Below are positions 1,605 through 27,421 of a stretch of 64,000 nt of DNA, piece by piece. A program made the translations under genes and the position numbers. Every line of letters starts with the position of its first letter. Positions within the stretch are counted from its first letter, which is position 1. The notes under the pieces are model-generated. The model was not told where the DNA came from, searched no databases, and saw nothing but the letters and a program-made list of their open reading frames with translations. The DNA is from Candidatus Saccharimonadota bacterium (lineage in GTDB: Bacteria; Patescibacteriota; Saccharimonadia; Saccharimonadales; UBA4665), in NCBI GenBank assembly GCA_027365775.1, contig DAHXLX010000017.1, positions 26,351 to 90,350 on the forward strand, given 5' to 3'.

Positions 1605-2975
1605 ATGGCAAACAATATACACGACAATCATGATAACTCAATTCCGCAAACGCCGGGTACTATTGTCTCTGCACCGCAAAATCTGGCCATAAATCTTGTC
1701 CGACAAAAAATCAACGCATTGTATGAAACCGAACCGGATGCCCAAACCGAAGCAAACGAAGTGGCAATTGAAACACGCCGGAGCAAACACCAGCAGGTCA
1801 TGTATGAATTGATGACCTCCGGTAAGGATCTCGCCAAAATCCAGACCGAATGGCATGAGTATTACCAGGGGCTATCAAACGAAGACAAAAAACAAGTCTG
1901 GCAGGAATTCTATAACAGCAATAAGAATGCCGTCCATCAGGCTCAAGCTGAAGCGGCCAAGAAACTGGATGACCAAGCAGCAAGCGAAACCGCGTCGAAA
2001 GTACGTCAAGCAATAGACAAACCGCAAGGCAGGCAGGCACAGAAGCTGGCGCAACATGTACATGAACGGGCCAACAAACGGCCTAGAACGAATAACAAGA
2101 ATTCAACAGTTACGGCGATTAGAAACAATCTTCGTACCAAGGCGGCAGCGTCACCGAAGCTTACCTGGAAGCACCACCTGCAATCAGCACTGTTCGGATT
2201 GGGAATGGGCGCAATCGTCGTATTCATTCTGCTGTTCGGATTCTTCAACGAAGTCATTATTGCACCCTTTATTCAACCCAGTCGAAATGATACGGCAACG
2301 CCAATAATTCTAAGCAATGCCACAGTTGCCCCCAGCCCAACACCGGAGGTCATTATACCTAAGATTAATGTCGAGATCCCGGTGGACTACAACGCTACAT
2401 CCACCAATGAAAATGTAATTGAAAATGATTTGAACGGGGGAGTTGTCCATTATCCGACCACATCTTATCCGGGCCAAACCGGTAACGCGGCTTATTTCGG
2501 ACACTCGTCAAATAATATTTTTAACCCCGGCAAGTATAAATTTGCATTCGTGTTACTGCACGATCTGGTTGCCGGTGATGTGTTTTATCTGACTTATAAT
2601 GATAAAGTCTACGCCTATAAAGTGTTCTCAACTACGGTTGTCAGTCCGAACGATGTCAGCGTTCTCGATCCGATTACCGGACATGCCGCTACTGCCACCC
2701 TTATAACTTGCGACCCGCCGGGAACCAGCATTAATCGTTTGGTTGTGGTTGGCGATCAAATAAGCCCAAGTCCAAGCAGCGATACCGCCCCCGCCAATCC
2801 AATTACTACCGCTAATACCACATCACAACTGCCCGGCAATGGACCGACCTTATGGCACCGCTTCTTCTCGACAATTTATGGAAAGCTGCTGACCATTGCG
2901 CTTATCGGTGTCGTCGGGTGGTTGATTTGGCGCTGGTATGCCAAAGAATTTAAGCGACCCGCTAAGACGCAATAA
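1605..2975 (+). CDS. sortase family transpeptidase with long N-terminal extension
   Basis: The C-terminal half carries the catalytic His region (YFGHSSNNIF) and the TLITC motif (ATLITCDPPGT). A TM segment lies near residue 200 and a second at the C-terminus. The ~190-aa N-terminal region is hydrophilic. Confidence 0.85.
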   Translation: MANNIHDNHDNSIPQTPGTIVSAPQNLAINLVRQKINALYETEPDAQTEANEVAIETRRSKHQQVMYELMTSGKDLAKIQTEWHEYYQGLSNEDKKQVWQEFYNSNKNAVHQAQAEAAKKLDDQAASETASKVRQAIDKPQGRQAQKLAQHVHERANKRPRTNNKNSTVTAIRNNLRTKAAASPKLTWKHHLQSALFGLGMGAIVVFILLFGFFNEVIIAPFIQPSRNDTATPIILSNATVAPSPTPEVIIPKINVEIPVDYNATSTNENVIENDLNGGVVHYPTTSYPGQTGNAAYFGHSSNNIFNPGKYKFAFVLLHDLVAGDVFYLTYNDKVYAYKVFSTTVVSPNDVSVLDPITGHAATATLITCDPPGTSINRLVVVGDQISPSPSSDTAPANPITTANTTSQLPGNGPTLWHRFFSTIYGKLLTIALIGVVGWLIWRWYAKEFKRPAKTQ

Positions 2976-4425
2976 GAGATACCTGATTTAAGTCAACGAT
3001 ACCATTGGCGGCCTGACTAAACGTAAAATACGAATGATAATCAGGAGCGAAGAACGGCTTGTACGCCGGTAAAGCCGGGGTCAAGGTTTGATGATTAGTG
3101 TCATCATAGTCGGTGACCATAAGTTTGCCGCCACTGACATAGTCAAGCCGGTCGCCATCCATCCAGTTCACATGAGTCTGGGGACCATCTAAAGGTTGGG
3201 TAGTCAAGTAGTGATATGCAGAGTCACCATAAATGTCATATATCGCAAAATTATTGCCATTTTCTGCCAGGATAAACTGAGCGGTCGGCGCAAAAGAAAG
3301 ATAGGTCGGATCAACAATTTTAATTGCTCGGAAGGCTGAAATCGCCGGTTGAGTCGAAGACGCTATTTGAAGATTAGGATTCAGATAAATATAGACGTAA
3401 CTATCGGCGCTATCGGCTATAGCGGCATAAAGATTGCCATTGTATCCTGCCATGTCCAACAGGTAAGTCGTCGCCTGAGGCATATAACGTACGAAATAAT
3501 CTTTGCCGCTAACATCTAACATAACCTTGACCTGTCCGGCTGGTGCGCCACCCTGAGTAACGAATAAAAGCTCGTTCGAACCGTAACTCTTATATGCCAG
3601 AACGCCTGTTTCAATCTGAGTCGGGGTTGGATTGCCGATTATTGCCGTGGACAGTGTCTGGGTTGAAGAATCATAAAAATAAAACTGGTTATATTTAAGA
3701 TTATTAAAGCTGACCGAAGTCGGATTAACGTTAAAGTTACGGTTTAAATTAATCGATTGATTCGGGTTCTGAGTGTCCAACTCAATAAATTCCTGATTGC
3801 CGTCATAGATATGGTCCAGCAACAGGTGTTGGTTGTCGTCCGCCCAGCCGATGACTTGCCAACTCTGGCTGATTTGCGCCGGACTTAAAAGTCCGGCCGG
3901 TAAGCTTAACGTAGTCGGCGTGGCCGTCGGGTCGGTTAGATTATAGAGGTAAAAACTGCCGAAACTGCCGGGTACCGATACCACCAGATACTGCTGGCCC
4001 GGGCTTTGGGTCGCGACTTCCGGAGCACCGTTAAACTTTGCAATGTTAATAGAATGTAATTTGGTTGGAAAGAGCAGCGGATAGTCATAATGAATGACCG
4101 TGCCACCAAAGACTGTTATCACGTGTTTCCACGGCCGATAGCCGGGAGCGGTTAATTTAAACTTATAAACACCCGAGGGGATAGTTAAGCGAGTATTGGT
4201 TGTTGCAGCATTTAAGACACCATTTATATATATCGAAGCCGGATTGGGTTGGCTGGACAAAAAAATCATACCATTCTGTATTACTTTGCCGTTCTTGACA
4301 CCGTAACCGTATGCTTGCCAGAGCAAGATAACACAGGTGAAGGCAATGGCTATGGCCACGAGCGAATAGCCTGTCCACAGGAAAAGACGATAGCGTCGCT
4401 GCTTCTTGGGGTCTAAATATTCCAT
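2962..4425 (-). CDS. PEGA domain-containing membrane-anchored protein
   Basis: An N-terminal TM is followed by a PEGA-type module (SQPNPASIYINGV...TIPSGVYKFKLTAPGYRPWKHVITV), then a large beta-rich extracellular region. Confidence 0.7.
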   Translation of the reverse strand: MEYLDPKKQRRYRLFLWTGYSLVAIAIAFTCVILLWQAYGYGVKNGKVIQNGMIFLSSQPNPASIYINGVLNAATTNTRLTIPSGVYKFKLTAPGYRPWKHVITVFGGTVIHYDYPLLFPTKLHSINIAKFNGAPEVATQSPGQQYLVVSVPGSFGSFYLYNLTDPTATPTTLSLPAGLLSPAQISQSWQVIGWADDNQHLLLDHIYDGNQEFIELDTQNPNQSINLNRNFNVNPTSVSFNNLKYNQFYFYDSSTQTLSTAIIGNPTPTQIETGVLAYKSYGSNELLFVTQGGAPAGQVKVMLDVSGKDYFVRYMPQATTYLLDMAGYNGNLYAAIADSADSYVYIYLNPNLQIASSTQPAISAFRAIKIVDPTYLSFAPTAQFILAENGNNFAIYDIYGDSAYHYLTTQPLDGPQTHVNWMDGDRLDYVSGGKLMVTDYDDTNHQTLTPALPAYKPFFAPDYHSYFTFSQAANGIVDLNQVSLIAS

Positions 4426-10398: not shown

Positions 10399-11028
10399 TT
10401 GGGTAAGTTAAAAACATACAAACAACTGATCAGAAACTATCCGATTTTAAGTGATCAGATGACCAAAAAAAGATTAGATATAATACTTCGGCAACTCGAA
10501 CAGATACTTATTAAGAACATACCCGGGAGTATTGTCGAGTTCGGCTGTTATATCGGCACCACCAGCGTATTTCTCAAACGACTCATCAACCAACACGACC
10601 CGAGCATAAGCTTCCATGTTTACGATTCGTTCAAAGGTCTACCACATAAATCAATCAAGGATGCGTCCGTCGCTGGTTCTGGCTTCCGTTCAGGAGAACT
10701 TAAAGCCAGTAAACGCCAACTATTAAAGACTTTTAAAAAGTCTCAACTTAAACCGCCCATAATCCATAAGGGTTGGTTCAACGAACTTAAAGACAAAGAT
10801 ATACCGTCGGAGATTGCTTATGCTTTTCTGGACGGGGATTTCTATAGCTCAATCAGCGACAGTCTTGAGCTAGTCTGGCCGAGATTAGTAACCGGTGGCA
10901 ATATCGTGATTGACGATTTCGGCAAGAGCAACTTACCGGGTGTCAGTCGAGCGGTTGAAGACTTTTTCAAAGACCGGCCCGCCAAGATAAGACACGAACA
11001 AGATCTGGCGATTATAACCAAACCATAA
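10399..11028 (+). CDS. class I SAM-dependent methyltransferase, TylF/MycF-like
   Basis: GSIVEFGCYIGTTSVFL (motif I) and AFLDGDFYSSISDSLELVWPRLVTGGNIVIDDFG. TTG start with AAGGA 5 nt upstream. Confidence 0.62.
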   Translation: MGKLKTYKQLIRNYPILSDQMTKKRLDIILRQLEQILIKNIPGSIVEFGCYIGTTSVFLKRLINQHDPSISFHVYDSFKGLPHKSIKDASVAGSGFRSGELKASKRQLLKTFKKSQLKPPIIHKGWFNELKDKDIPSEIAYAFLDGDFYSSISDSLELVWPRLVTGGNIVIDDFGKSNLPGVSRAVEDFFKDRPAKIRHEQDLAIITKP

Positions 11029-11342
11029 CTCTCACCGGTTTCGGCCCTAAATTATTTAATTTCAAGCATTGTTAGACCGTAAGTCGATAGGGAACATAAA
11101 GCGACCATTTCCCTAAAGCAAGTTATGCAGCAAGTAAAAGTTATAGTAAATTTCGTAAAGGGGGTCTTCAGTTCGGCCATAAAGATACCGCTCCGCCAGT
11201 CTGTGGAATGTACCCATTATTCTAGACAGTGTTGTCTACAATAGTAGCAATACTGCACTAAGTAATGGAGGGCTAGCTCATGCCTAAGCGTCACATGATT
11301 CGTTCAAATGTTAAAGCTCAGATTCTAAAACGCTTAAAGGAG

Positions 11343-11353
11343 GATGGTGACCC
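11343..11353. repeat. 11-bp direct repeat GATGGTGACCC (candidate attL core)
   Basis: Exact copy of 16919-16929, the string that covers the CCA end and acceptor 3' bases of tRNA-Glu. Confidence 0.6.
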
Positions 11354-11432
11354 TAAGCCCCTCGATTTATAAGTCTATTGTAGGTGAAATTATTAGATGG
11401 AATAGTTTAGTTAGGCCCTCGTTAAAAAGTTA

Positions 11433-11852
11433 TTAAGATTTGTCACCCTTAAAAATCCACTGAACACCGTACCTATCATAAAATTGTCCATAAATTCCAA
11501 AAGGCATTTCGTGTAGTTCTTGCAGCCTTTTGTTATTATCGCCATCTTTTAGTTTTTCAAAAACTGTCTTTAATTCATCATAAGACTTACCTGTAACATA
11601 TATGGCTGTTGTATTACCTTGAACAGGGTCATAGTCAGGAGAAGCCATCCAATCGGTTGCTGATATTTCAATATCGCCACTTTTTAGATATGCGTTTATA
11701 AGTCTATTGTGTTTCTTTGGCGGGAACATATTTTTCATTGGTGTATCGCCAAGCTTAGTAAGCGACAATTCACCACCAAGACATTCGTGATAAAACGTCA
11801 TGGCTTCTGCACAGTTACCCTCAAATAGTAAAAATGGTGTTGCTTTAAGCAT
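11433..11852 (-). CDS. VOC / PhnB-like (glyoxalase-fold) family protein
   Basis: ATPFLLFEGNCAEAMTFYHECLGGEL ... FGIYGQFYDRYGVQWIF matches the PhnB/3-demethylubiquinone methyltransferase-like VOC pattern. Confidence 0.62.
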   Translation of the reverse strand: MLKATPFLLFEGNCAEAMTFYHECLGGELSLTKLGDTPMKNMFPPKKHNRLINAYLKSGDIEISATDWMASPDYDPVQGNTTAIYVTGKSYDELKTVFEKLKDGDNNKRLQELHEMPFGIYGQFYDRYGVQWIFKGDKS

Positions 11853-12293
11853 TGTTTATGTCCGTCTTGAAGTTATATTTATATATAAATATTAGCACCA
11901 TAACAGAATCAAACTTAACTAACAGTTATAAAACAAGATAACGTATAAATCGACACTTCAAATGTCAGATATTATAAATGTCAGAACCAACAGATTACAG
12001 CTAAGGATTTTATGCGGTAATGAAAAATTCAATCATGGTGAACCACCAAGCCATTAGTTCTCATTTATTGTTTGATGAATTAAGGCGATGGCAAACAATA
12101 ATCAACAGTAACACCCTAACCAAAGAGAAAAAATATCTAGATAGTTATTCCCATTACACCCCCTCAGTGATTAACACTTAACTAAACTAAGAGTGAATAT
12201 TAATAAACCTGAATAAAAGCTGAAATTTTATTTTAATAGTGCTAATATTTTAACAACAGCATTGCAGTTCAGTCTGGAAGGGAGGAAATTTAA

Positions 12294-13049
12294 ATGTCAG
12301 GCAACACTGTTAAATCTAAAAATGGTAACTGGTTCGGCAGACATAAGATTATAACTACAATTTTAGGATTAATTGTACTCGGGATTATCATATCGGCATT
12401 AGATAATAGTGGAAGCAGCACTAAACCTACTTCATCAACTACTAGTGCCAATACCACGGCGAAAACCACGCAGACGACCTCAAACAAGCCTCAAACAACC
12501 AAAACAAGCTCTGCACCAGCCAAACGACAAGTAAAAGGTACGGCGATAACCTTAGGAGCTGGCACATTCACAGGAGGAAAAGACATTGCGGTAGGTTTAT
12601 ATGACGTTACTGCACCAGCCGGGCAAAGTGGCAACTTTATTGTCAGTGGCACCGACTCTTATAACGAAGTTCTCGGCACAGATACATCAATGAGCGAGGT
12701 TCCAAAAATCAGAGTACAAATATCTAGTGGCGACCAAATACAAATTTCTGGATTGAGCGGTGTTTCATTTACACCAGTTACAACCCCTTTCGTAACAACA
12801 CATGTCCAAACAACATTATATGCTGGCACGTTTATAGTGGGGCAAGATATTGGAGCGGGTAGATACGTTGTGACTCCTGGTTCTGGGCAAAGTGGCAACT
12901 TTATAGTGGACGGTGGAGATAGCTATAACGAAGTATTAGGTACCGATAGTTCAATGGGAGAGGTTCCGAGTTTAACAGTAAATCTGTCACCTGGAGACAC
13001 TATAAACATCTCAGGGATGAGCCAAGTTAACTTCCAGCCCACTAATTAG
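12294..13049 (+). CDS. membrane-anchored secreted protein with internal tandem domain duplication, unknown function
   Basis: Strong SD (GGGAGG), an N-terminal TM and a Ser/Thr-rich linker. Two ~95-aa repeats follow: GAGTFTGGKDIAVGLYDVTAPAGQSGNFIVSGTDSYNEVLGTDTSMSEVP... and YAGTFIVGQDIGAGRYVVTPGSGQSGNFIVDGGDSYNEVLGTDSSMGEVP... Confidence 0.6.
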   Translation: MSGNTVKSKNGNWFGRHKIITTILGLIVLGIIISALDNSGSSTKPTSSTTSANTTAKTTQTTSNKPQTTKTSSAPAKRQVKGTAITLGAGTFTGGKDIAVGLYDVTAPAGQSGNFIVSGTDSYNEVLGTDTSMSEVPKIRVQISSGDQIQISGLSGVSFTPVTTPFVTTHVQTTLYAGTFIVGQDIGAGRYVVTPGSGQSGNFIVDGGDSYNEVLGTDSSMGEVPSLTVNLSPGDTINISGMSQVNFQPTN

Positions 13050-13111
13050 GGGTAATCTGCAATTGTACCAACAGAAAGCTAAGGCGGATAAAAACTAAAG
13101 GAGCAACCGCA

Positions 13112-14620
13112 ATGCAAAAACTCAAAGATATAGGAGCAGTCCTTCTAGGAATCCTAATTATTGTCGGTATTTTAGTCGGTAGCATTCTTATCATTGGTTA
13201 TGGCAGCAAGGTTGCCATTAAAGCAGACCCAATTCTTTCATGGATTAGCTTAGCGATACTCGTGATAAACCTTATAACAATACCCCTGGTTATTTTCAAA
13301 AGAACCCGAGCCTGGTATGGGCTTGAGTTATTCTTCTCTTCAATGATATACGGACTTTCCCTTTGGGTGTATGGATTTTTAGTAACTTATATATTATGGG
13401 GAATAGGCGCGGTTGTAGTAGGTATCTTTATTTTAGGTATTGGCGTGGTTCCTTTTGGATTAATAGCGTCAGTTATTCATCATGAGTGGAGTTATTTTTG
13501 GAACCTTATTTTGATGCTCGTACTTACTTTTGCATCTAGGGGCATTGGTTCAGTCCTAGTCGATAGAGCCGAAAGTGACGAAGGCTATGAGGATGTTGAT
13601 GTTAAAGAAGAGCCGCTCAAAGGTCTTGAAGAGATATATATTGGTAATAAGGCTGCCATAAAAGCTAGTTTATCTAAAGTTAAAAATGCTGGTCAGAATA
13701 CAGAGATAATCGGCTGGTTGGCAATTGCAGTTGGAGCTATCGCAATTTGGCTCCAAGGTCATAATGGTTATCAAGCAATAGCCATATGGTTTATCTATCT
13801 GATAATTGGGCTTTATTTCATTTACTCAGGTAAGTACATACGCTATGCACGAGGCAAACATATAGCAGGACTTTTATTATTAAACGGATTCCTACTATTA
13901 GCTCTAACTCCAGGTATCTTTCCGCTAATAGTGTCTATTCAATCATTCGTTAATTATGGAAGATACAGGAAACTTAAAAACAAGTTTAAGCCTAAGTTTA
14001 GTAAACATCCATCACTTCAAATATCCACATCGCAAGCTATTGTTTTTGTCGTACTTATATTAGCCGGTATTTTATCTATAGGTTTTAAATTCAGTAGTTC
14101 CTCAAATGCCAATACGTCAGCGCAAAGTAACAATGCAACTCTTGCTCAAAGACCAGCATTATTTACTGCCTCAAATAACAACTTCTCAATCAACTTTCCT
14201 GGCACCCCCACCACGTCTAGCTCCAGCCAGCAGGTTTCTGGTTATACGGTGCCAATAACAACTTATGACAGCCAAGTCAATAACGGTAGTCAAGAATATG
14301 ATGTCTACGTTTATAATTGGCCATCACAAGGTTTTGATTTTTCAAATCTATCAACTACTGATATGCAGACAACTCTAAAGGATTCCGCTAGTGGCATAAT
14401 TCAAGCTGTTAACGGTAAATCAGTAAATGATGTTTTTGGGAATTATGATGGACACATCTCTTTAGATTCACAATTCACCACTAAAATATCTGGCAACTCC
14501 TATCCAATGTATTTAAGAGTATTTTTTGTGGGGAACAATGAATATGGCATTGCTTCACTTAATTCTAGCCAGGGAGACTTTAATAGTTTTGCCAATTCAT
14601 TTAGTTATACAGGGCAATAA
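13112..14620 (+). CDS. polytopic membrane protein with C-terminal extracytoplasmic domain, unknown function
   Basis: SD AAGGAG. About 5 TM segments, an acidic loop (AESDEGYEDVDVKEE), about 4 more TM segments, a basic patch, one final TM and a ~190-aa Ser/Asn-rich soluble tail. Confidence 0.6.
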   Translation: MQKLKDIGAVLLGILIIVGILVGSILIIGYGSKVAIKADPILSWISLAILVINLITIPLVIFKRTRAWYGLELFFSSMIYGLSLWVYGFLVTYILWGIGAVVVGIFILGIGVVPFGLIASVIHHEWSYFWNLILMLVLTFASRGIGSVLVDRAESDEGYEDVDVKEEPLKGLEEIYIGNKAAIKASLSKVKNAGQNTEIIGWLAIAVGAIAIWLQGHNGYQAIAIWFIYLIIGLYFIYSGKYIRYARGKHIAGLLLLNGFLLLALTPGIFPLIVSIQSFVNYGRYRKLKNKFKPKFSKHPSLQISTSQAIVFVVLILAGILSIGFKFSSSSNANTSAQSNNATLAQRPALFTASNNNFSINFPGTPTTSSSSQQVSGYTVPITTYDSQVNNGSQEYDVYVYNWPSQGFDFSNLSTTDMQTTLKDSASGIIQAVNGKSVNDVFGNYDGHISLDSQFTTKISGNSYPMYLRVFFVGNNEYGIASLNSSQGDFNSFANSFSYTGQ

Positions 14621-14685
14621 TTAGGTGGGTATTCGATATTTCCCTCAATCAACATTTAGCCCTAATAAACACAATTAGAACGAGT

Positions 14686-14714
14686 GGTAGGAAAATAGCC
14701 CTACCTCTTTATCC
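14686..14714 (+). terminator. weak intrinsic terminator candidate
   Basis: GGTAGG-loop-CCTACC hairpin (14686-14705) followed by TCTTTATCC. Confidence 0.3.
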
Positions 14715-15099
14715 TTAATCCAATTTATTTTAGACCTCTAACCCGTGTTCTTTAATTAAAGATACCCCTACGCATATTTATCTTGAATTTCTATTATCAC
14801 TAAAACTATCCAATGGCATAAAGAAAACTAAAAACCAAAGATAATTTGCCATCAGAAACCAGGGGTATTCTTTGGAATAACTAAGGCAGTTGAATAATTA
14901 TCCTTATCTGTCCAACAAGTTGCGTCAAAAACTCTTTTAGTTTTATTAGGCTTCAGCCATTGACAGATGATATAGAAAAATGTCCTTGAAAAGATTATGG
15001 TCCTGGCTATTATAGAGTTAAGCAGTTTACTTTGTAGCGGAATTCTTACCCGAGTTAGCTAAGTAACAAAGTAAACAACCGGGTGAAGAAGGGAGCGTT

Positions 15100-15276
15100 G
15101 TGGGCCACGCCAGGGTAAAGGCAGCCGCTAAACCAACGCCTGAAAACCAAAGTCAGAAGCAAGTTTTCTACTACACTGACAAAAATCGGGTTCAAAAGGC
15201 ATCACAGCAAGACTTTGACGAGCTTGCTAGGTTACTTTTGCGTGTCTATAAGAAGAAAAAGATTACTATATCATAA
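15100..15276 (+). CDS. speculative small basic ORF (58 aa) upstream of the recombinase
   Basis: GTG start with GGGAG 5-9 nt upstream. Hand translation: VGHARVKAAAKPTPENQSQKQVFYYTDKNRVQKASQQDFDELARLLLRVYKKKKITIS. It is absent from the ORF track because it is shorter than 60 aa. Confidence 0.2.
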   Translation: MGHARVKAAAKPTPENQSQKQVFYYTDKNRVQKASQQDFDELARLLLRVYKKKKITIS

Positions 15277-15398
15277 TATAGACGTACTGACCATTATTAC
15301 GCCATTATTTTCGTTTATATCAATGGCAGCATCGGCGTTGGGGTCATGCAACTGGTCTCTGGAGCTGCCACTCATATTAAAGATTAAGGAGGAATAAA

Positions 15399-17021
15399 AT
15401 GGCTGAATTTTTAGCCATAGCCCAATGTCGGGTCTCAACCTTAGAGCAAAAAGAAGCAGGCAATAGCCTGGAAGCACAAGAAAAATATATTTACGAGTGT
15501 GCCGAAAAGCTGGATGCAAAAATAGTAAAAATGTGGTCACTTAATGTGTCGAGTCGAAAGGGCAAGAACCTAGCCAGAAAAGATTTACAAGAAATATTCC
15601 AATACTGTAAAGAGTATAAAAATATCCGATATTACATCTTAGATGAGGTAGATAGGTTTATGCGTTCCGTCGAAGAATACTATTGGTGGAAAGTGGAGTT
15701 CAAGCGTATTGGAGTCTATCTTGCATATGCTAAACTGCCGGAACTTACGCACCAGGATGACCCGCTAGCAGTCATGCGTGAAATGCTTGAGGTTTTTCGG
15801 GCAGAAGCCAGTAACCACGAGAGGATAACCAAGACCAAAGACAAAATGGCCGCACGCGCAGCTGCCGGTTACTATCCATCTAATCCGAGACAAGGTTACG
15901 TAAGGGGGACAATTCCAGCCCTCCACGTCCCAGACCACAGGCTTGAACGCTTTAACTTGCTAAAACAGGCACTAACCGCAACTGCCCACTTCAAAATGAA
16001 GCCAGAGGAAGCTTTGCGTTGGTTGAATGAAAATGGTTACCGCACTCCGGGTGGCTGCAAATTAGATATGAACCATTGGCGGAGCATCATGCTTGACCCA
16101 TATTACGCTGGCATTATTAAGTTTGGCCAGTGTCCAATTAATGAAAATGGTCTTCATGAAGCTATGATTACTAAAGCAGAGTGGGAGATAAATGTAGCTA
16201 TAATTACCAAACGGCCAACAAATCGCAGGGGGCAGTTCAACCCTAATTACCCCCTCAACAAATACATCGTGCATAAGGATTGTGACAAAGGTGACACTAA
16301 CAAGTTCAGTGGCTTTAATCACTCTAATGGCAAGGGTTGGGAACGTTCTGATTATAGCTGTCGAGGTTGCTCAATATGTCTCTCCAGAGATGACATTCAC
16401 GACCATTTAAGCGCAGTGCTTGATGCTATGGTGTTTATAGGTGGTTCTAAGGATAGGCTCAAGAAATCACTTAAGATTGCCTGGCAAGACGAAGAAAAGT
16501 ACCGATTTGATAAATTAGAGCGCTTAAATAAACTTAAGCTTGGCCAGGAAGAAGTAAAGTCTAAGGTCATTAGCGCCATAGTAAGCAATCCTGACATGGC
16601 AGATGACCTAAAGACGGAGCTAAATAAAACAAAGGCTAAAATAGCCGAATATGAGGCTCAGATTACCGAAGCAGGTCAGGTAGACAAAGAGTTTCGAGAT
16701 TTTACATTGTTTGCCTTAGATTTTGTAGATAATTTACGGCAGAACTTCTGGAGGCTTGAGCCAGAAGATTTTATTGCTTGTTTGAAGTTATTGTTTCCTG
16801 AGGCAATTGAAGTAGATTCTGGCAAAAAACTTCACATTTCCAGGATTAGCCCGCTCTATATCCTAAACTCAGTAACTAAAAATTTAAAAATTGTCCAATT
16901 TGATACAAAATCAGGAATGATGGTGACCCCTGCGGGATTCGAACCCGCGATTGCCGGACTGAGAACCCGGAGTCCTGGACCGCTAGACGAAGGGGCCACT
17001 TGCTTCAGCATGGCATATTAG
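15399..17021 (+). CDS. large serine recombinase (resolvase/invertase-type catalytic domain)
   Basis: AIAQCRVSTLEQ (catalytic Ser), DEVDRFMRS, a Cys cluster (CRGCSIC) and a long coiled-coil (KLERLNKLKLGQEE...KAKIAEYEAQITEAG). Strong SD AAGGAGG. The last ~33 codons are antisense to tRNA-Glu. Confidence 0.85.
   Translation: MAEFLAIAQCRVSTLEQKEAGNSLEAQEKYIYECAEKLDAKIVKMWSLNVSSRKGKNLARKDLQEIFQYCKEYKNIRYYILDEVDRFMRSVEEYYWWKVEFKRIGVYLAYAKLPELTHQDDPLAVMREMLEVFRAEASNHERITKTKDKMAARAAAGYYPSNPRQGYVRGTIPALHVPDHRLERFNLLKQALTATAHFKMKPEEALRWLNENGYRTPGGCKLDMNHWRSIMLDPYYAGIIKFGQCPINENGLHEAMITKAEWEINVAIITKRPTNRRGQFNPNYPLNKYIVHKDCDKGDTNKFSGFNHSNGKGWERSDYSCRGCSICLSRDDIHDHLSAVLDAMVFIGGSKDRLKKSLKIAWQDEEKYRFDKLERLNKLKLGQEEVKSKVISAIVSNPDMADDLKTELNKTKAKIAEYEAQITEAGQVDKEFRDFTLFALDFVDNLRQNFWRLEPEDFIACLKLLFPEAIEVDSGKKLHISRISPLYILNSVTKNLKIVQFDTKSGMMVTPAGFEPAIAGLRTRSPGPLDEGATCFSMAY
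16919..16929. repeat. 11-bp direct repeat GATGGTGACCC (candidate attR core)
   Basis: Overlaps the tRNA-Glu 3' end. Identical to 11343-11353. Confidence 0.6.
16921..16997 (-). tRNA. tRNA-Glu (anticodon CUC), CCA encoded
   Basis: Hand fold of the reverse complement. Acceptor stem GGCCCCT/AGGGGTC with one G-U pair. D-stem GTCT/AGGAC. Anticodon stem CCGGG/TCCGG with loop TTCTCAG. T-arm GCGGG-TTCGAAT-CCCGC. Terminal ACCA. Confidence 0.9.
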
Positions 17022-17137
17022 CACATCTGTTAGATAGCGTCTACAAACCACCTCAAATACTATATTGCTCTATTGCTTATGCTATAGCAAACAGGGATAA
17101 TGATAATCAGTTAACCATAACTAAAATGTATTAAAAC

Positions 17138-18475
17138 ATGAATGTATATGAGATTTCGGATTTTGGGCTTGGTTTAATTATTGTTGTACTGGTTTTGATA
17201 ATTATCAATAAGAACCACAAATCATTGCCAAATTCAGGCGAGAATCTAGAGAACTATCTAAGGGACGAAAAACAGAAATCAGCTATCATCCTTAACGCAA
17301 TTGATGACGGCGTAATGCTTATAGACAATAATGGTATTATCCAGTTATTCAACCCCGGTGCGGTCAAGATTTCCGGCTGGCCGGCGGACGAAGCCAGAAA
17401 ACTAGATTACAAATCGGTATTGAAACTTGTTAACGATAAAGGTGAACCGTATAACGTTCAGCAAGATCCGATAGCCAGGATATTCAACGATCCGTCCAAT
17501 ACCATAAGAGACAATAACGCCAATCTGGAAACTCGTAGCGGCAAACAGCTTCCGCTATCCTTAAGTGTCTCACCACTTGTCGATCAAAAACGGCAGATGA
17601 CCGGTGCGGTCGCAATTTTTCGCGACATCACCCAGGAAAGGCAGGAAGAAAAGCAGCGTTCGGAGTTTATAAGCACAGCCAGCCATGAGATGCGGACACC
17701 GGTAGCCGCGATCGAGGGCTATTTGGCTTTAGCGCTTAATGATAAGGTCAGCACAGTCGACAGCCGGGCTAAGCAGTACTTAGAGAAGGCCCATGAATCA
17801 ACCCAACATCTGGGTAAATTGTTCCAGGACTTACTCACGTCCGCCAAAGCCGAAGACGGAAGGTTAACATCGCATCCGATATCGATCGAGTTAGGAGAAT
17901 TCTTAGAACAATTAAGCAACGATTTACGGTTTGCGGCGGACAAAAAAGGTTTGGCGCTTGAATTTAGTTTAGGTTCCAGTGAAACCATTGATGCAACCCA
18001 AAAAAATACAGCCGGATTTAAAGTCATTAAGCCCTTATATTACGTGCTTGCCGATCCGGATCGATTACGCGAGGTAATCACTAATCTGTTTGATAATGCG
18101 GTCAAGTACACCGACGAGGGCAAAATAACCCTGGGATTAACCGGCGATCCAAAGATCGTTCAGATATACATCAAAGATACAGGAGTTGGCATACCGGCCG
18201 AAGACATACCGCATTTATTCCAGAAATTCTATAGGGTAGACAATTCAGCCACCAGAACAATCGGCGGCACGGGACTGGGACTATACATTTGTCGTAAAAT
18301 TGTCGAATTGTATCAGGGTAGAATATGGGTCGAAAGTACTATCGGAAAAGGTTCGACATTCTTTATTAACTTTCCAAGGTTATCGACTGAACAAGCAGAA
18401 GCCGAAAAACGTAGCGAGGCAGCCGGTAACGGTGTAAACCCGATTACAAGTATAACCACACACATGTTACAATAA
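17138..18475 (+). CDS. sensor histidine kinase (TM + PAS + HisKA + HATPase_c)
   Basis: H-box STASHEMRTPVAAIEGY, N-box ITNLFDNAVKYT, G-boxes KDTGVGI and GGTGLGLYICRKIVELYQG. Confidence 0.88.
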   Translation: MNVYEISDFGLGLIIVVLVLIIINKNHKSLPNSGENLENYLRDEKQKSAIILNAIDDGVMLIDNNGIIQLFNPGAVKISGWPADEARKLDYKSVLKLVNDKGEPYNVQQDPIARIFNDPSNTIRDNNANLETRSGKQLPLSLSVSPLVDQKRQMTGAVAIFRDITQERQEEKQRSEFISTASHEMRTPVAAIEGYLALALNDKVSTVDSRAKQYLEKAHESTQHLGKLFQDLLTSAKAEDGRLTSHPISIELGEFLEQLSNDLRFAADKKGLALEFSLGSSETIDATQKNTAGFKVIKPLYYVLADPDRLREVITNLFDNAVKYTDEGKITLGLTGDPKIVQIYIKDTGVGIPAEDIPHLFQKFYRVDNSATRTIGGTGLGLYICRKIVELYQGRIWVESTIGKGSTFFINFPRLSTEQAEAEKRSEAAGNGVNPITSITTHMLQ

Positions 18476-21939: not shown

Positions 21940-22580
21940 TGGCCTGGTTACAAAAACGACCCCAAGTAGCATTGCCGATTAATTACTATACAGTCGGACA
22001 AAACACGGTTTTATTGTTAGTTGGTCTAGGTAACCCGGGCACCAAATATGATAACACCCGTCACAATATCGGTTTTGCATGTATCGATGCTTTTGTCGAT
22101 AAGTATGATGAGATGTCCGAATGGGTAGGCAAGAGAGACTTAAAGTGCTTGATGTCAACCGGTCGAATCGGTGAGAATCAGGTGATTGCAATAAAGCCAA
22201 CAACGTACATGAACCTTAGCGGAGAAGCAGTATCACTGGTAATGAGTTTTTATAAGCTCCAGCTAGCGCATATAGCAGTCGTCCACGATGAGCTGGATAT
22301 CGACTTCGGCTATATTCGCACCCGCCTCGGTGGCAGTGCTGCCGGCCACAACGGTATCAAATCGATCACAGATCATATAGGGGAAGATTACGCACGCATA
22401 AGAATCGGAATCGGACCGAAGCGACCAGCGCAAATCGATAGTGCCGACTTTGTCTTGCAGCCGTTTAACGATACGGAGAAACGGCAATTGGACAACCTGA
22501 AACAGGAAGTAACGGCAATTATTAGTGAATTTGTTTATGCCAAAACAATCAGCCAAGAAACCAGAACATTTATCGTGTAA
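21939..22580 (+). CDS. pth: peptidyl-tRNA hydrolase
   Basis: LLVGLGNPGTKYDNTRHNIGF, YMNLSGEAV and HDELD motifs. The start overlaps the der stop (TAATG). Confidence 0.9.
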   Translation: MAWLQKRPQVALPINYYTVGQNTVLLLVGLGNPGTKYDNTRHNIGFACIDAFVDKYDEMSEWVGKRDLKCLMSTGRIGENQVIAIKPTTYMNLSGEAVSLVMSFYKLQLAHIAVVHDELDIDFGYIRTRLGGSAAGHNGIKSITDHIGEDYARIRIGIGPKRPAQIDSADFVLQPFNDTEKRQLDNLKQEVTAIISEFVYAKTISQETRTFIV

Positions 22581-22581
22581 T

Positions 22582-22625
22582 ACAAAAACAGACCGACGAG
22601 AGGGGGTGGGCACCGCTCGTCAGTC
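22582..22625 (-). terminator. intrinsic terminator (minus-strand orientation)
   Basis: On the minus strand, the GAC-T-GACGAG ... CTCGTC-G-GTC stem is followed by TCTGTTTTTGT. The T-tract is present only in this orientation. Confidence 0.5.
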
Positions 22626-22924
22626 TGTCTCAGCGGACAGAAGAACTGTCCGCAAACAAACTCCCTTCAAGCCCACCCGGGCGAAACATCATGCAAAAAA
22701 ATAAGGCACGTGTCTTTACTATAAGTAAAACCGTTCAGGCTCGCGCTTGATCGGGGGATCACTTAAAGGGGTTAGTATGCTTTAGAACGATGCCTTAAAG
22801 GCACCTAAAGGACGTAGTAGTGGAGGGTAACAACTACTTTATATGGTCCCGATCTAAAGCAATCTAACATTTGTTAGAATGGGGTAAAAGGTGCGTAAAT
22901 CCTAATAAATTAAGACTTACAGCT
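22582..22924 (-). ncRNA. candidate ~340-nt structured RNA of unknown class
   Basis: It lies between a consensus promoter and the terminator above and has stops in all frames. Several nested helices are visible: GATCGGG/CCCGATC, CTTTAG/CTAAAG, AGTAG/CTACT, GCGGACAG/CTGTCCGC and GGGTGGGC/GCCCACCC. Confidence 0.45.
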
Positions 22925-22928
22925 GGCA

Positions 22929-22957
22929 ATAATAGCAAAATTGTGTTTTTATGTCAA
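22929..22957 (-). promoter_or_regulatory. sigma70-type promoter TTGACA-N17-TATTAT
   Basis: The reverse complement reads GTATTGACATAAAAACACAATTTTGCTATTATTGCCAGCT. The predicted TSS is near 22922-22924. Confidence 0.5.
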
Positions 22958-23025
22958 TACTTTCTAATAATTTCTATATACTGACAAATTCATGTTGTTA
23001 TCATGCTTGTGTTAATATATAATCT

Positions 23026-23211
23026 ATGGGCAATATAAATAAAAAAATAACCATTATGTGTTTCACCGTTCTAGGATTAGTTGGCAGCTGGATTGGCGCC
23101 GCTATGCAGCACAATAATTGGTTCGGTTTATGGAGTAACGTACTGGGCATCGTCGGATCGTTAGTCGGCATCTGGGTAGGTATTATCATCGGCAATTACA
23201 TCGATTCTTAA
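23026..23211 (+). CDS. small two-TM membrane protein (GlsB/YeaQ/YmgE-like pattern)
   Basis: Gly-rich TM helices VLGLVGSWIGAAM and VLGIVGSLVGIWVGIIIG. The start is uncertain, with an alternative ATG at 23056. Confidence 0.45.
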   Translation: MGNINKKITIMCFTVLGLVGSWIGAAMQHNNWFGLWSNVLGIVGSLVGIWVGIIIGNYIDS

Positions 23212-23296
23212 AAATTGTTAGAATCCTCTGTATTCAAACTTAAGATTATTTAAATATTAATTGCATAAAGGTCATATTGTGCTTAAGATGTACGAT

Positions 23297-25582
23297 ATGC
23301 CGAAAAATCTAGTTATAGTGGAAAGCCCAGCTAAAGCACAAACAATCGAGAAATTTTTAGGTAAAGATTACATCGTTAAAAGTAGCTTTGGCCATATCCG
23401 GGACCTCCCTAAAAAGGGCCTAAATATAGACATAGAAAACGGCTTTACACCAAAATACGAAATAAATAGCGACAAAAAGACTGTGGTAAGGGATTTAAAA
23501 AAACTTGCCAAAGGCAGTGAAGTACTGCTGGCAAGTGATGAAGATAGAGAAGGGGAAGCCATTGCCTGGCACTTGACTCAGGCCTTGGATTTGGATCCGA
23601 AGAAAACCAAGCGGATAGTGTTCCATGAAATTACCAAACCGGCAATCGAGCAGGCCATCAAGCATCCCCGCACGCTTGATCTGCGACTGGTAGACGCGCA
23701 ACAGGCGCGACGTGTACTTGACCGGTTGGTAGGTTATGAACTGAGCCCCTTACTTTGGAAGAAAGTTAGAACCGGTTTAAGTGCAGGACGGGTTCAGTCC
23801 GTAGCAGTTAGACTAATTGTTGAACGAGAGCGTGAAATCAGGCAATTCACAGCCGAATCGTCATTCAAGGTCACAGCAATTTTCGAACACAATAATGACT
23901 CGATACCGGCAACACTTAATAGCCCTCTCAAGGACTACGTACAGACTAAAAATTGGTTAACAGAAACAGCATCTGCATCGTTTAAGGTCGTAAATCTGGA
24001 TACGAAGCCAAGCCGAAGAAGTCCTAGCGCACCTTTTACAACCAGTACGCTACAGCAAGAGGCGTCTATAAAGCTCGGCTTCAATGTCAGGCAGACAATG
24101 ACGCTTGCCCAACGCTTGTACGAAGCGGGATTGATTACCTATATGCGTACTGACAGCACGATATTGTCCGATTTGGCAATAAAATCAATTGGCGACTACA
24201 TTAAAAGTCAGTATGGGCAAAGTTACCACAGTGCCAGACAATACAAAACCAGGAATCGAAGCGCCCAAGAGGCGCATGAGGCAATTCGACCAACCAACAT
24301 ATCAACAACAGCCATAGCCGGTGACGGCGGCGAAAAAAAACTTTATGATTTAATTTGGCGTCGGGTTGTTGCGTCACAGATGTCCGAGGCTAGAATATCG
24401 AGAACGGCAATTCAAATAGCGATTTCCAATCAAAAGGAGCTTTTTATTGCCAAGGGTGAAGCACTTGAGTTTGACGGGTATATGAAAGTTTACGGAGGGG
24501 CCAAAGACGATATTGTACTACCGCCGCTTAAAGTTAATGATCCGCTTATTCTAAAGCAGTTGGGTGCCAGAGAGCAATTCAGTCGCGGACCAGCCCGTTA
24601 CAGCGAAGCCGGACTGGTTAAGAAACTAGAGGAGCTGGGCATCGGTAGACCGAGTACCTACGCGCCAACAATAACAACTATCCAATCCCGGGGTTATGTT
24701 GAGAAGCGCGATTTAATGGGTGAACAGCGAAAACTTAAGTTGCTAACAATAAAGGATAAACAAGTCCAGGAATCAGAAGAAGAAGAGACAACAGGAGCGG
24801 ACCGCAACAAACTAGTACCCACGCCAATAGCGGAAGTGACGACAGACTTTTTAACTAAATACTTCTCATCGGTTGTAGATTATGATTTTACCGCCAGAGC
24901 CGAAGAGAACTTCGACGCGATTGCTATGGGCCAGCAAAAGTGGAATGCAATGATTAGTGATTTCTATAAGGATTTTCATCCGTTAATTGAGAGAACCGAA
25001 GATGTGTCAAGGCATGAGGTCTCCCAGGCACGACTGGTGGGCAACGATCCGAACAGTGGCAAACCAATATATGCCCGCTTCGGCCGTTATGGACCAATGC
25101 TTCAGCTTGGCGAAACGACTGAAAAGCAAAAACCAGACTTTGCTCCGTTACCAGAGGGGTCGTCGATCGATTCGATAACGCTTGAACAGGCATTAACAAT
25201 GTTTAGACTGCCGAGAAAAGTAGGTGTTACTGCCGATGGCGAAGAAATCCAGGCAAATATCGGCCGGTTCGGGCCATATATTAAAGTAGGCGGCAAATCG
25301 GTATCGATTAGAGGTCACGATCCGCATAATATTACCCAAGAACAAGCCATATTACTCTATGAAGAAAAATTAAAGAAAGATGCCGAGAAATATATCAAAG
25401 ATCTGGGCCAGGACGTCAAGATATTAAACGGACCCTATGGGCCATATATTACCAACGGTAAAAAAAACGCCAAAATTGATAATAATACTGATCCTACTAC
25501 AATAACCCTGGCTCAAGCTGAGAAAATGCTGGCTAAGGCTCCAGACAAAAAAAGACGATTCAGACGCAAGAAAACAAAGTAG
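23297..25582 (+). CDS. topA: DNA topoisomerase I
   Basis: TOPRIM N-terminus MPKNLVIVESPAKAQTIEKFLG and LASDEDREGEAIAWH, and the catalytic Tyr region LITYMRTDS. The start is chosen at MPKNLVIV rather than the TTG at 23261. Confidence 0.92.
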   Translation: MPKNLVIVESPAKAQTIEKFLGKDYIVKSSFGHIRDLPKKGLNIDIENGFTPKYEINSDKKTVVRDLKKLAKGSEVLLASDEDREGEAIAWHLTQALDLDPKKTKRIVFHEITKPAIEQAIKHPRTLDLRLVDAQQARRVLDRLVGYELSPLLWKKVRTGLSAGRVQSVAVRLIVEREREIRQFTAESSFKVTAIFEHNNDSIPATLNSPLKDYVQTKNWLTETASASFKVVNLDTKPSRRSPSAPFTTSTLQQEASIKLGFNVRQTMTLAQRLYEAGLITYMRTDSTILSDLAIKSIGDYIKSQYGQSYHSARQYKTRNRSAQEAHEAIRPTNISTTAIAGDGGEKKLYDLIWRRVVASQMSEARISRTAIQIAISNQKELFIAKGEALEFDGYMKVYGGAKDDIVLPPLKVNDPLILKQLGAREQFSRGPARYSEAGLVKKLEELGIGRPSTYAPTITTIQSRGYVEKRDLMGEQRKLKLLTIKDKQVQESEEEETTGADRNKLVPTPIAEVTTDFLTKYFSSVVDYDFTARAEENFDAIAMGQQKWNAMISDFYKDFHPLIERTEDVSRHEVSQARLVGNDPNSGKPIYARFGRYGPMLQLGETTEKQKPDFAPLPEGSSIDSITLEQALTMFRLPRKVGVTADGEEIQANIGRFGPYIKVGGKSVSIRGHDPHNITQEQAILLYEEKLKKDAEKYIKDLGQDVKILNGPYGPYITNGKKNAKIDNNTDPTTITLAQAEKMLAKAPDKKRRFRRKKTK

Positions 25583-25764: not shown

Positions 25765-26793
25765 ATGTCAGAGAAAATATCGACGAAAAATTTGGTAAAC
25801 GGGGTACTGCAGTCCATAGATCACGATCGTGAAAGAGAGATTGTATCTCGACGTTTTGGCCTATTCGAGCGCAAGGAAACCCTTGAGCAAATAGGAGAAC
25901 TGTTAAGTATTACCCGTGAAAGAGTACGCCAACTCGAAAAAGCTGTTATCCAAAAACTCAAGGCGGCCGGCGAACAGCATAAACTTGCGGGTATCGATGA
26001 TTTTCAAACTCAAATTCTGGCAATAGTAAAAAGCTCAGGCCAGGTAGTACGAATCAGCGAATTGGCTAACCGGTTGGTCGAGGATCCTAACCGTATCGAA
26101 CAATCAAGGTTGGCCTTCCTGTGCGGGCTATGTCCTGATCTTGTATTAATATCTGACGATGATACTTTCTATGCGTGTGTAGCCGATAGACAACAGTATA
26201 GCGAAAAGTCACTTAAAGAGGCGATTGGCAACATTACCAAAACCATCTCTAAGATTGGTGAGCCTAAACCAATCGAATATATCGCTAAACAGGCAGGTAT
26301 AGCCGATATCAAGCATGCCAAAGCATTAGCCGGTGCATCAAAACTACTGACAAGCCTGAATGGACAGTGGGGGCTAGTTAAATGGCCATTAGTTAACCCA
26401 AAGAATATCCGCGACAAAATATATGTTATTTTGAAGGAAAACGGTCGCCATATGCATTTTAACGAAATAGCTGAAGCAATCAAGTCCAGTGAATTCAAAC
26501 GAAAAGACGTAACAACTCAGGCTATACACAATGAATTGATTAAAGACAAGCGATTCGTTCTGATCGGCCGTGGAATCTATGCACTTAAAGAATGGGGTTA
26601 TGAAAAGGGTACTGTGGCTGATATCATTAGCCAGGTACTAAGAGAAGCAAACCAACCGTTACATCGTGATGAAATAGTTAAACGCGTTCTAAAGAGTCGT
26701 TTTGTAAAAGAAACTACAATATTATTAAATTTACAGGGTAAACCACAATTCCGTCGCGTGGCGAAAGCTACTTACGAGTTATCTGACGATTAG
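25765..26793 (+). CDS. sigma-70 region-4-like HTH plus HARE-HTH domain protein
   Basis: ETLEQIGELLSITRERVRQLEKAVIQKLK matches sigma region 4.2. The C-terminal half contains two HARE-HTH-like units (MHFNEIAEAIKS...RFVLIGRGIYALKEWG and LHRDEIVKRVL...FRRVAKATYEL). Confidence 0.68.
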   Translation: MSEKISTKNLVNGVLQSIDHDREREIVSRRFGLFERKETLEQIGELLSITRERVRQLEKAVIQKLKAAGEQHKLAGIDDFQTQILAIVKSSGQVVRISELANRLVEDPNRIEQSRLAFLCGLCPDLVLISDDDTFYACVADRQQYSEKSLKEAIGNITKTISKIGEPKPIEYIAKQAGIADIKHAKALAGASKLLTSLNGQWGLVKWPLVNPKNIRDKIYVILKENGRHMHFNEIAEAIKSSEFKRKDVTTQAIHNELIKDKRFVLIGRGIYALKEWGYEKGTVADIISQVLREANQPLHRDEIVKRVLKSRFVKETTILLNLQGKPQFRRVAKATYELSDD

Positions 26794-26819
26794 ATCATAT
26801 TAAACACAATTGTTTGCCT

Positions 26820-26840
26820 TACTGAACAATTTGCGAACTA
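26820..26840. repeat. 21-bp perfect direct repeat TACTGAACAATTTGCGAACTA, copy 1
   Basis: Identical to 27401-27421. Confidence 0.9.
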
Positions 26841-27400: not shown

Positions 27401-27421
27401 TACTGAACAATTTGCGAACTA
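27401..27421. repeat. 21-bp perfect direct repeat, copy 2
   Basis: Identical to 26820-26840. A third partial copy (TTACTGAAC) lies at about 27449. Confidence 0.9.

Follow-up and report, generated by a model that had tools for sequence, protein, structure and literature searches.

A serine-recombinase element at a Saccharimonadales tRNA-Glu gene, with a recombinase gene predicted to be split by its own integration

The window analysed here is a 64,000-nt stretch of DNA (contig DAHXLX010000017.1) from a Saccharimonadales (Saccharibacteria/TM7) bacterium. It contains a tRNA-Glu(CUC) gene and, at the 3' end of this gene, a 4,885-bp element with a large serine recombinase gene, two cargo genes and a small open reading frame (ORF) (Table 1). 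The element was very probably inserted at the tRNA 3' end by the serine recombinase, in an architecture that splits the recombinase gene on integration. The tRNA gene had been placed on the minus strand by an initial annotation made from the sequence of the window, and both ARAGORN and Rfam (54 bits) recovered it there. That annotation overlooked how far the recombinase ORF extends: it crosses the tRNA gene from end to end in antisense and meets its stop codon 24 nt past it, with no stop codon before the right attachment site (attR). Residues 1-509 constitute the recombinase; the integrated copy then reads into the antisense tRNA and ends in an unrelated tail of 31 residues (510-540) that come from translating the tRNA gene and the next 24 nt in antisense.

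Table 1. Features of the tRNA-Glu(CUC) locus, in window coordinates
Feature	Position	Strand	Evidence
Integrative element, 4,885 bp, present/absent between near-identical genomes	12042..16926	+	BLAST of L002/L006 against the window
tRNA-Glu(CUC), integration target	16921..16997	-	ARAGORN; Rfam RF00005, 54.3 bits; identical gene beside the empty site, L006 11638-11714
attL core ATGGTGA, intact element	12035..12041	+	Empty-allele L006 versus window junctions; L007 ends in empty junction; L010 carries attL
attR core ATGGTGA	16920..16926	+	Overlap of two alignments to empty allele; attP symmetry scan
Large serine recombinase ORF, integrated form, 540 aa	15399..17021	+	Pfam; family alignment; profile hits 4kis/3bvp; Foldseek of family model
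Detached 3' exon-like recombinase end, 46 codons (NHQAISSHLLFDELRRWQTIINSN...INT) plus stop	12041..12181	+	Translation; tail hidden Markov model; homologous tails
251-aa membrane-anchored protein, Ser/Thr-rich linker, duplicated ~80-aa domain	12294..13049	+	ORF list; phrog_32160
502-aa polytopic membrane protein, C-terminal extracytoplasmic domain	13112..14620	+	ORF list
58-aa small ORF just upstream of recombinase, motif DFDELARLLLRVYKKKK	15100..15276	+	Called gene in source contig
Older attL core ATGGTGACCC (left repeat of the initial annotation)	11344..11353	+	In empty allele too; second-best hit of tail hidden Markov model; L095 homologue
Recombinase-less remnant cassette	11354..12034	.	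Flanked by ATGGTGACCC repeats in empty allele; GC 34.2%
VOC/glyoxalase-fold gene, in remnant cassette	11433-11852	-	

The profile search that had been suggested for the 540-aa protein agreed with its proposed class. Pfam matched Resolvase (PF00239; E 1.5e-12, 48 bits against a cut-off of 23.3) and Recombinase (PF07508; E 3.2e-4), the latter barely passing at 21.3 bits against a cut-off of 21.1, and PF13408 gave no Pfam hit in the window protein. The PHROG integrase phrog_95 matched residues 6-477 (1e-32). More than 229 relatives with 36-78% identity were found. In an alignment of 39 of them the catalytic residues R11, S13, D85, R86 and R89 never vary, nor do the zinc-ribbon cysteines, and conservation extends to about residue 490 (KVYTPxISPIYRY). 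The family consensus of the zinc ribbon is CxxC...CRxC; the window protein has HxxC...CxxC, with C295, C321 and C324 conserved. A phmmer search of the recombinase against PDB sequences returned no match, and a family profile was required: this matched the C-terminal domains of the A118 integrase (4kis/6dnw; E 6e-10, positions 208-441) and also the catalytic domain of the TP901-1 integrase (3bvp). The AlphaFold model of one relative, P0044, has a mean predicted local distance difference test score (pLDDT) of 83.9 and shows long paired helices at 366-466. Its best Foldseek matches were full-length serine-integrase structures from cryo-electron microscopy and Bxb1 (E 1e-15 to 1e-12), and matches to 9dxd, 9iu2 and 4kis had E values of 1e-15 to 1e-9. 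By these profile and model comparisons, membership in the large serine recombinases is secure.

The initial annotation had described an island of ~5.6 kb that used the tRNA-Glu 3' end as bacterial attachment site (attB), with its left boundary at 11343 and an 11-bp repeat at its ends, and had recommended looking for an empty site in related genomes. Exact-protein look-ups of the flanking genes matched the window to ENA contig ERZ27237454:k141_718273 and found such an allele in GCA_027426835.1 (loci L002/L006), where the VOC gene is followed directly by tRNA-Glu and a histidine kinase gene. By BLAST, its flanks are 99.92% and 99.99% identical to those of the window, and exactly 4,885 bp (12042-16926) are missing; the two flank alignments share an overlap at window positions 12031-12041 and 16916-16926. 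The empty-site junction in L006 reads ...aaaaattcaatcATGGTGAcccctgcggg..., the attL junction of the window ...aaaaattcaatcATGGTGAaccaccaagcc... and its attR junction ...aatcaggaatgATGGTGAcccctgcggg.... Reconstruction gave AAAAATTCAATCATGGTGACCCCTGCGGG as the attB junction and ...AATCAGGAATGATGGTGAACCACCAAGCC... as the attP junction expected for the active element. The direct repeat is 7 bp long, the complement of ACCA plus two acceptor-stem bases, and identity between attP and attB is confined to ATGGTGA. The locus thus shows what defines a tRNA-gene island: precise presence/absence in close relatives, an intact tRNA gene and short direct repeats derived from the tRNA 3' end.

Integration at the tRNA 3' end is therefore upheld by an empty site, precise junctions and a restored tRNA, and the extent and repeat first assigned to the island are not. 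The 11-mer GATGGTGACCC does occur exactly twice in 64 kb (11343 and 16919, 0.01 expected), as had been noted, but it persists in the empty allele together with the VOC gene, which had been counted as part of the element, and the crossover repeat of the polymorphic element is the 7-bp ATGGTGA. Likewise, the circular junction that had been predicted, ...GATGGTGACCCTAAGCCCC..., would belong to a composite, whereas that of the active element would be the attP junction given above. Further material came from public assemblies. A Logan contig of SRR13221996 terminates in the empty junction, attL or internal parts of the element were found on contigs from SRR13221994 and ERZ27237460, and the core is the break point of several contigs, which fits a polymorphic site in the populations sampled.

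The AT-rich shift reported for the interval was borne out quantitatively, at a modest size. The GC content is 39.5% in 12042-16926 and 34.2% in 11343-12041, against 45.6% and 45.9% in the flanks and 44.1% in the window. Windowed GC and tetranucleotide analysis, run as had been suggested, made the element an outlier for both: it is among the lowest 4.4% of equal-sized windows for GC and in the top 1.3% for tetranucleotide distance, and the windows that are more extreme all overlap the same region. The compositional shift of the element is thus genuine, if modest. An Rfam scan of 10900-17300 detected the tRNA alone; in the 780 bp that separate the 502-aa gene from the recombinase gene it recognised no structured RNA.

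Reading of the recombinase ORF into a tRNA gene is shared by the family. We fetched 80 genomic loci, nearly all from metagenome-assembled genomes of Saccharibacteria/Saccharimonadales and a few from other Patescibacteria. An antisense tRNA overlaps the 3' end of the recombinase gene in 63/79 loci, and the ORF passes the crossover in 62 of these 63. The targets are tRNA-Gly-GCC/TCC, Lys-TTT/CTT, Arg-GCG/TCG/CCG, Glu-TTC/CTC, Val-GAC and Ala-TGC; in 4 more loci the 3' end of a transfer-messenger RNA (tmRNA) gene is overlapped, and most loci with neither a tRNA nor a tmRNA are cut by contig ends. In nearly all relatives the tails past about residue 505 resemble antisense tRNA translations, such as MVTPAGFEPAI..., LEGPVGLEPTTPCLKGRCSNQLSYGP, GGPGGTRTLDTLLKRQVL and LVELAGTAPAS, and no family member has a stop of its own between the conserved domain and the att core. 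The integrated ORFs are uninterrupted and full-length in nearly all 80 loci. At the tmRNA (ssrA) 3' end, the subfamily comprises L023 11493-11878, L045 11481-11867, L055 11490-11880 and L064 11502-11879, and the C-termini of its ORFs read MVELxGxAP..., which is what the acceptor and T arm of the tmRNA encode in antisense.

The counterpart of this replaced C-terminus lies at the opposite end of the element. The frame of the 46-codon stretch beside attL joins the recombinase ORF only across the circular attP junction (...KSGMMV|NHQAISSHLLFDELRRWQTIINSN...INT*). The protein of the reconstructed circular form would have 555 aa, its last 46 residues forming a linker and a conserved E-x-x-R-W-x-x-I-L helix. 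Similar tails recur across the family: clustering of ORFs in the 10 kb upstream of recombinases yielded small plus-strand ORFs 2.3-6.7 kb upstream with the motif E-(I/L)-x-R-W-(R/Q)-x-I-L (RW motif), and in ~70/81 loci a hidden Markov model (HMM) of the tail motif matched the plus strand at 1.7-9.3 kb upstream of the recombinase. From the tail-to-recombinase distances, the elements are ~3.3-11 kb in size. In a six-frame scan of the window the best hit of the tail HMM was at 12044-12145 (E 3e-11) and the second at 11374-11400; the window tail is nearly identical in DNA to the attL of L013.

A tail hit accompanies an antisense tRNA in 49 loci. In 46 of these the 6-nt core, which starts at TGG (the complement of CCA), is found upstream of the tail, at most 100 nt away, and shares the reading frame of the recombinase; out-of-frame occurrences number 2 (binomial p 6e-20). 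Each of the 46 tails has an open frame of 30-60 codons, and RW is missing from just one. The pooled ratio of non-synonymous to synonymous changes (pN/pS) around the tail motif is 0.39, and close pairs show a pN of 0.03-0.08 versus a pS of 0.24-0.67; judged by these substitutions, the tail is under purifying selection. The core-to-RW distance ranges from 50 to 115 nt, varying by tens of nt, and the motif is therefore not a fixed DNA half-site. Closer to the core, most family members (e.g. L046, L059 and L071) have a conserved AGTTTACAC-like motif in the P' arm, ~20 nt right of the core. This motif also encodes S/N-L-H/Y at the start of the tail, and DNA and protein constraints therefore overlap there.

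Five database proteins (P0044, P0098, P0110, P0101 and P0007) carry recombinase and RW tail as a single uninterrupted ORF. The locus of P0044 (L094 1-8006, Logan contig ERR12387302_38228) is a contig of 8,006 bp whose terminal overlap of 30 nt (k-1) points to a circle of 7,976 bp; it has no tRNA gene, and its recombinase gene is uninterrupted. The cargo consists of a Dam-like methyltransferase, a DUF6996/6997/7226 protein and a DUF7380 protein, and has the look of a defence or restriction module. In the AlphaFold model of P0044 the att-encoded residues fall in a disordered linker (512-530, pLDDT <50) that is followed by a C-terminal helix at 532-557. attP thus lies within the linker-coding part of the recombinase gene, whose final helix is detached by integration. 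The recombination site thus lies inside the recombinase's own ORF, the feature by which suicidal integrases are recognised. Comparison of the loci shows that this self-splitting architecture is common to a large recombinase family in Saccharibacteria and other Patescibacteria, at the 3' ends of tRNA and tmRNA genes.

For core and symmetry analysis, 46 attP/attB pairs were reconstructed. Identity between the two usually starts exactly at TGG and spans 6 nt: TGGAGG (Lys), TGGTGC (Gly) and TGGTGA (Glu); for Arg it spans 9 nt (TGGTACACC). In each of the four tRNA types attP has a sharp maximum of dyad symmetry when the central dinucleotide is placed at +4/+5, counted from the T of TGG; there, on average, 6.3/14 arm positions are symmetric, compared with ~3.4 elsewhere. 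In the window the attP centre is TGGT-GA-ACCA, and crossover is predicted at the GA of 16925-16926, which corresponds to tRNA nt 71-72. The four bases left of the centre must match because they are the complement of A73-C-C-A, which is element-derived after integration. The right arm of the element would accordingly re-supply A73-C-C-A, together with a terminator-like hairpin. Such a hairpin is present at 16932-16912 (tRNA strand), made up of the tRNA 3' end and the right arm of the element and followed by the T-run ATTTTGT; the tRNA gene may owe its terminator to the element.

The left repeat of the initial annotation marks an older insertion at the same locus. After the ATGGTGACCC core, the frame in recombinase phase reads MVTLSPSIYKSIVGEIIRWNSLVRPSLKSY*, beginning MVTLSPSIYKSIVGEIIRWNSLV..., and the DNA past the 11343 core resembles the P' arm of the intact element. 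The two sites differ in type, TGGTGA|CCCTAAG...EIIRWN at 11343 versus TGGTGA|ACCACCAAG...ELRRWQ in the intact element. Two sister species (L095 and L099; histidine-kinase identity 77-79%) retain the synteny and lack the VOC gene at that position. One of them has a serpin gene alone between the methyltransferase gene and tRNA-Glu, and the other an array of genes; one part of it, a 1.5-kb cassette (NYN, YdjC), has TGGTGACCCTAAGGGG...LAREIIRWNKLMPY at its head, a close match to window 11343 in alignment. This homologous older attL is at 6267 in L095, with a more degenerate copy further left. We considered whether the 11-mer at 11343 is a chance match and rejected this because an RW tail follows in frame, the P' arm is similar and a sister species has a homologue. 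The interval 11344-12034 is therefore an older 0.69-kb cassette of a different att/tail type that lacks a recombinase, and the locus consists of two cassettes in a tandem array. At its right end, the VOC remnant aligned only weakly with the 3' end of the recombinase gene.

Accretion and decay of this kind are likewise seen at L059, L063, L086, L028 and L025. In L059, a second full-length recombinase gene lies upstream (1696-3417) and its ORF runs straight into the RW tail of the next cassette, so that the tandem array regenerates a full-length enzyme.

The cargo of the window element is its own: the 251-aa and 502-aa proteins are absent from all 80 related loci. The former is matched in two stretches by phrog_32160, a PHROG of unknown function (E 1.9e-46), and the latter had no hit in Pfam, PHROG or NCBIfam. 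Elsewhere in the family the cargo varies between elements and includes DNA methyltransferases, nucleases, helix-turn-helix proteins, ATPases, DUF-rich defence-like genes and surface proteins. Pfam, PHROG and NCBIfam detected no virion, packaging or lysis genes among the element ORFs (only the integrase and the one PHROG of unknown function), and Pfam and NCBIfam no relaxase, coupling protein or type IV secretion domains in the four ORFs. The 58-aa ORF is preceded by a promoter-like site at 14986-15013. Clustering placed the ends of similar small ORFs 50-170 nt upstream of the recombinase gene in at least 45 loci, and an iterative HMM search, which may have drifted, did so in 63. Some serine integrases have small directionality factors of comparable size and position, and by this analogy the 58-aa ORF is a candidate recombination directionality factor or regulator.

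We propose the following sequence of events. The free circle would encode the full-length 555-aa enzyme with the RW helix. Recombination between attP, inside the recombinase ORF, and attB at the tRNA 3' end would then split the gene and fuse the enzyme to antisense-tRNA sequence, and this exchange of tails would make the free and integrated enzymes functionally different. The exchange might serve as a built-in directionality switch, a role that we suggest tentatively. It might instead leave the element locked in until full-length enzyme is provided in trans by a tandem neighbour or an incoming copy, which we consider a rather doubtful prospect; the remainder of our expectation lies with an effect on stability or with no large effect. 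The small upstream ORF would possibly act as directionality factor. The architecture itself is shown by the loci described above, and a function for the tail exchange is suggested by that architecture.

Other explanations of the locus were weighed against this one. Movement of the VOC gene and the rest of 11343-16929 together, as a single 5.6-kb island with the 11-bp repeats for its ends, is improbable. Confinement of the 11-mer to 11343 and 16919 in the window would suit it, as would the genuine att-type character of 11343, with its P'-like arm and in-frame RW tail, and a recombinase acting at the outermost sites could in principle excise the composite (junction ...GGAATGATGGTGACCCTAAGCCCC...), left of which lies a flank with a TylF methyltransferase. 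However, in the sole polymorphism observed, 12042-16926 is gone but the 11-mer and the VOC gene stay in place; the attL at 11343 is not of the intact element's sequence type and recurs with other cargo in a sister species. We give equally little weight to a decayed prophage or phage satellite in place of an autonomous integrative element. Genes for capsid, terminase, portal, tail or replication are lacking from the element, the members of its family are small throughout (3.3-11 kb), with cargo of methyltransferases, nucleases and defence-like or surface proteins, and the 7,976-bp circular member has the same minimal make-up; these outweigh the match of the 251-aa cargo protein to a phage protein family (phrog_32160) and the frequency of serine integrases in temperate phages.

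The reading of the ORF through the tRNA could also be incidental, the functional recombinase ending before the att site and the conservation of the tail reflecting that of the P' arm as DNA. The first ~25 nt past the core are indeed conserved as DNA, the recurrent AGTTTACAC motif among them, and the pLDDT of the tail helix is only moderate. Against this, the frame is open and in phase in 46 loci, compared with 2 out-of-frame occurrences. From the conserved domain to the core, stops are lacking in every locus, and around the RW motif synonymous changes are far more numerous than non-synonymous ones. This motif lies at a variable 50-115 nt from the core and beyond the half-site of a large serine recombinase, and uninterrupted tail-bearing ORFs exist on circular or unintegrated contigs; we therefore find the incidental explanation very hard to credit. 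A more serious alternative, though still an unlikely one, holds that the integrated recombinase is dead ('suicidal' in the strict sense), the element locked and decaying, and the empty allele ancestral and not a product of excision. The archaeal precedent behaves in this way (PMC8371274). Recombinase-less remnants are common at such sites (window 11344-12034, L095 and L025), and the one recombinase of a tandem array to regain a full tail is the upstream one (L059). Yet the integrated ORFs are intact in nearly all 80 loci, the loss amounts to only 46/555 residues outside the catalytic, recombinase, zinc-ribbon and coiled-coil domains, and a conserved small ORF typical of directionality factors accompanies the recombinase gene. 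An element that splits and re-tails its own recombinase gene on integration remains the reading that we favour.

Several points weigh against that favoured reading. Evidence for present mobility consists solely of the presence/absence polymorphism, from which integration and excision are indistinguishable, and exact searches of viral contigs and of Joint Genome Institute (JGI) metagenome contigs did not find the circular junction of the window element. Domain scans recognised no transfer, replication or packaging genes in the element that could account for its movement between cells. The tail helix of P0044 reaches a pLDDT of only ~62 in the AlphaFold model, and activity of the recombinase is putative. 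In the Gly-targeting subfamily (21 loci, e.g. L075, L086 and L089) the symmetry centre of attP is GC, which is palindromic, and attB shows no symmetry. A palindromic GC would give no orientation control in known serine integrases, and the crossover in this subfamily is uncertain. Finally, the left target half-site beside the remnant was element-derived and not a naive attB arm, and canonical serine integrases discriminate against an element-derived half-site.

With the characterised large serine recombinases (A118/LI integrase, TP901-1, Bxb1 and phiC31) the family shares a resolvase-type catalytic domain with a Ser nucleophile, a recombinase domain and a zinc ribbon with an inserted coiled-coil. 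The att sites are likewise short and have few bp in common between attP and attB; they appear to be arranged as a dyad about a central dinucleotide, which in the Gly subfamily would be the palindromic GC. A small adjacent ORF is a possible directionality factor, as small factors are known for TP901-1 and SPbeta. Sequence similarity to characterised serine integrases is low (nothing by phmmer against the PDB; profile E 6e-10 to 4kis). Unlike them, the present family targets tRNA and tmRNA 3' ends throughout and has attP inside the recombinase ORF, with integration replacing a conserved C-terminal helix. To our knowledge, targeting of tRNA 3' ends is typical of tyrosine and not of serine integrases and is unusual for serine recombinases; here it is a trait of the whole family.

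The closest parallel in logic is offered by the suicidal tyrosine integrases of archaea (SSV-type, pTN3 and pT26-2), which have the site of recombination inside the integrase gene itself, target tRNA genes and leave the gene parts flanking the element (PMC8371274). Those enzymes are tyrosine recombinases (Phage_integr_3) in which the split severs an N-terminal part from the catalytic domain and yields two inactive fragments, whereas here a bacterial serine recombinase loses only the last 46/555 residues and its recognised domains stay intact. The present family is an analogue of the archaeal suicidal integrases and not a member. A 2021 review held self-partitioning (suicidal) integrase genes to be exclusive to Archaea (PMC8371274), and if a family of bacterial serine recombinases follows the same logic, the arrangement would have arisen by convergent evolution in enzymes of an unrelated class. 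We found no description of these Saccharibacteria elements in the open-access full-text literature, where absence is not proof.

Integration-dependent immunity in mycobacteriophages, reportedly described by Broussard et al. in 2013, has attP inside the repressor gene. In both systems integration into a tRNA gene alters a C-terminus, attP being near the 3' end of the ORF, and the free and integrated proteins differ. There the repressor is split by a tyrosine integrase and the tail is a degradation tag, whereas here the recombinase is split and the tail is a conserved helix. Resemblance to tRNA-gene islands and to the accretion of integrative and conjugative elements and cis-mobilizable elements (ICE/CIME) lies in the restored tRNA 3' end, the recombinase adjacent to the tRNA and the tandem, att-bounded cassettes without a recombinase. 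The elements described here differ in their size of 3-11 kb, the lack of conjugation or mobilisation genes, the serine recombinase and their occurrence in the ultra-small genomes of Patescibacteria.

It is possible, and we offer this with reserve, that these are widespread miniature tRNA/tmRNA elements of Saccharibacteria and other Patescibacteria whose own reaction rewrites their serine integrase, with direction control by site position or a reversible lock as the outcome, in a counterpart of the archaeal suicidal integrases. Serine integrases are valued as genome-engineering tools for their strict directionality, and a C-terminus that differs between the free and integrated states would be a testable, factor-independent form of direction control. 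The family also offers dozens of integrase/att pairs at conserved tRNA/tmRNA ends in Saccharibacteria, where genetic tools are scarce. Streamlined genomes, moreover, appear to keep active hot spots that accrete small cassettes with surface proteins, methyltransferases and defence-like genes.

Some minor observations concern the surroundings of these features. Elsewhere in the window low-GC stretches occur at 26500-27500 (0.345), 22500-23500 (0.38) and 59500-60500 (0.395), none with a tail-HMM hit. A tRNA-Leu(CAA) gene on the minus strand (1439-1524) has no adjoining RW-tail hit in the 1.4 kb of its 3' side that the window covers. A 30-aa ORF at 11280-11372, annotated in public contigs, crosses the remnant att core in a frame other than that of the tail and is probably an artefact. 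In L025 and L038, apparently interrupted recombinase genes were considered and rejected, since the extra match comes from a resolvase-like fragment of its own and from an upstream copy that has decayed. Two loci, L025 (8558-8848) and L038 (9090-9437), have a short N-terminal fragment of resolvase type (28% identity to residues 2-105) directly upstream of the intact recombinase, and L025 2465-3109 is a decayed C-terminal fragment of a recombinase in a position matching the upstream recombinase of L059. The tRNA-Glu(CUC) locus of L095 (5228-7805, GCA_027426895.1) holds at least two recombinase-less cassettes headed by TGGTGACCCTAAG...IIRW attL sites; the genes present there include NYN, YdjC, a YafQ-like toxin and others, and a serpin gene that is absent from the window adjoins the methyltransferase gene.

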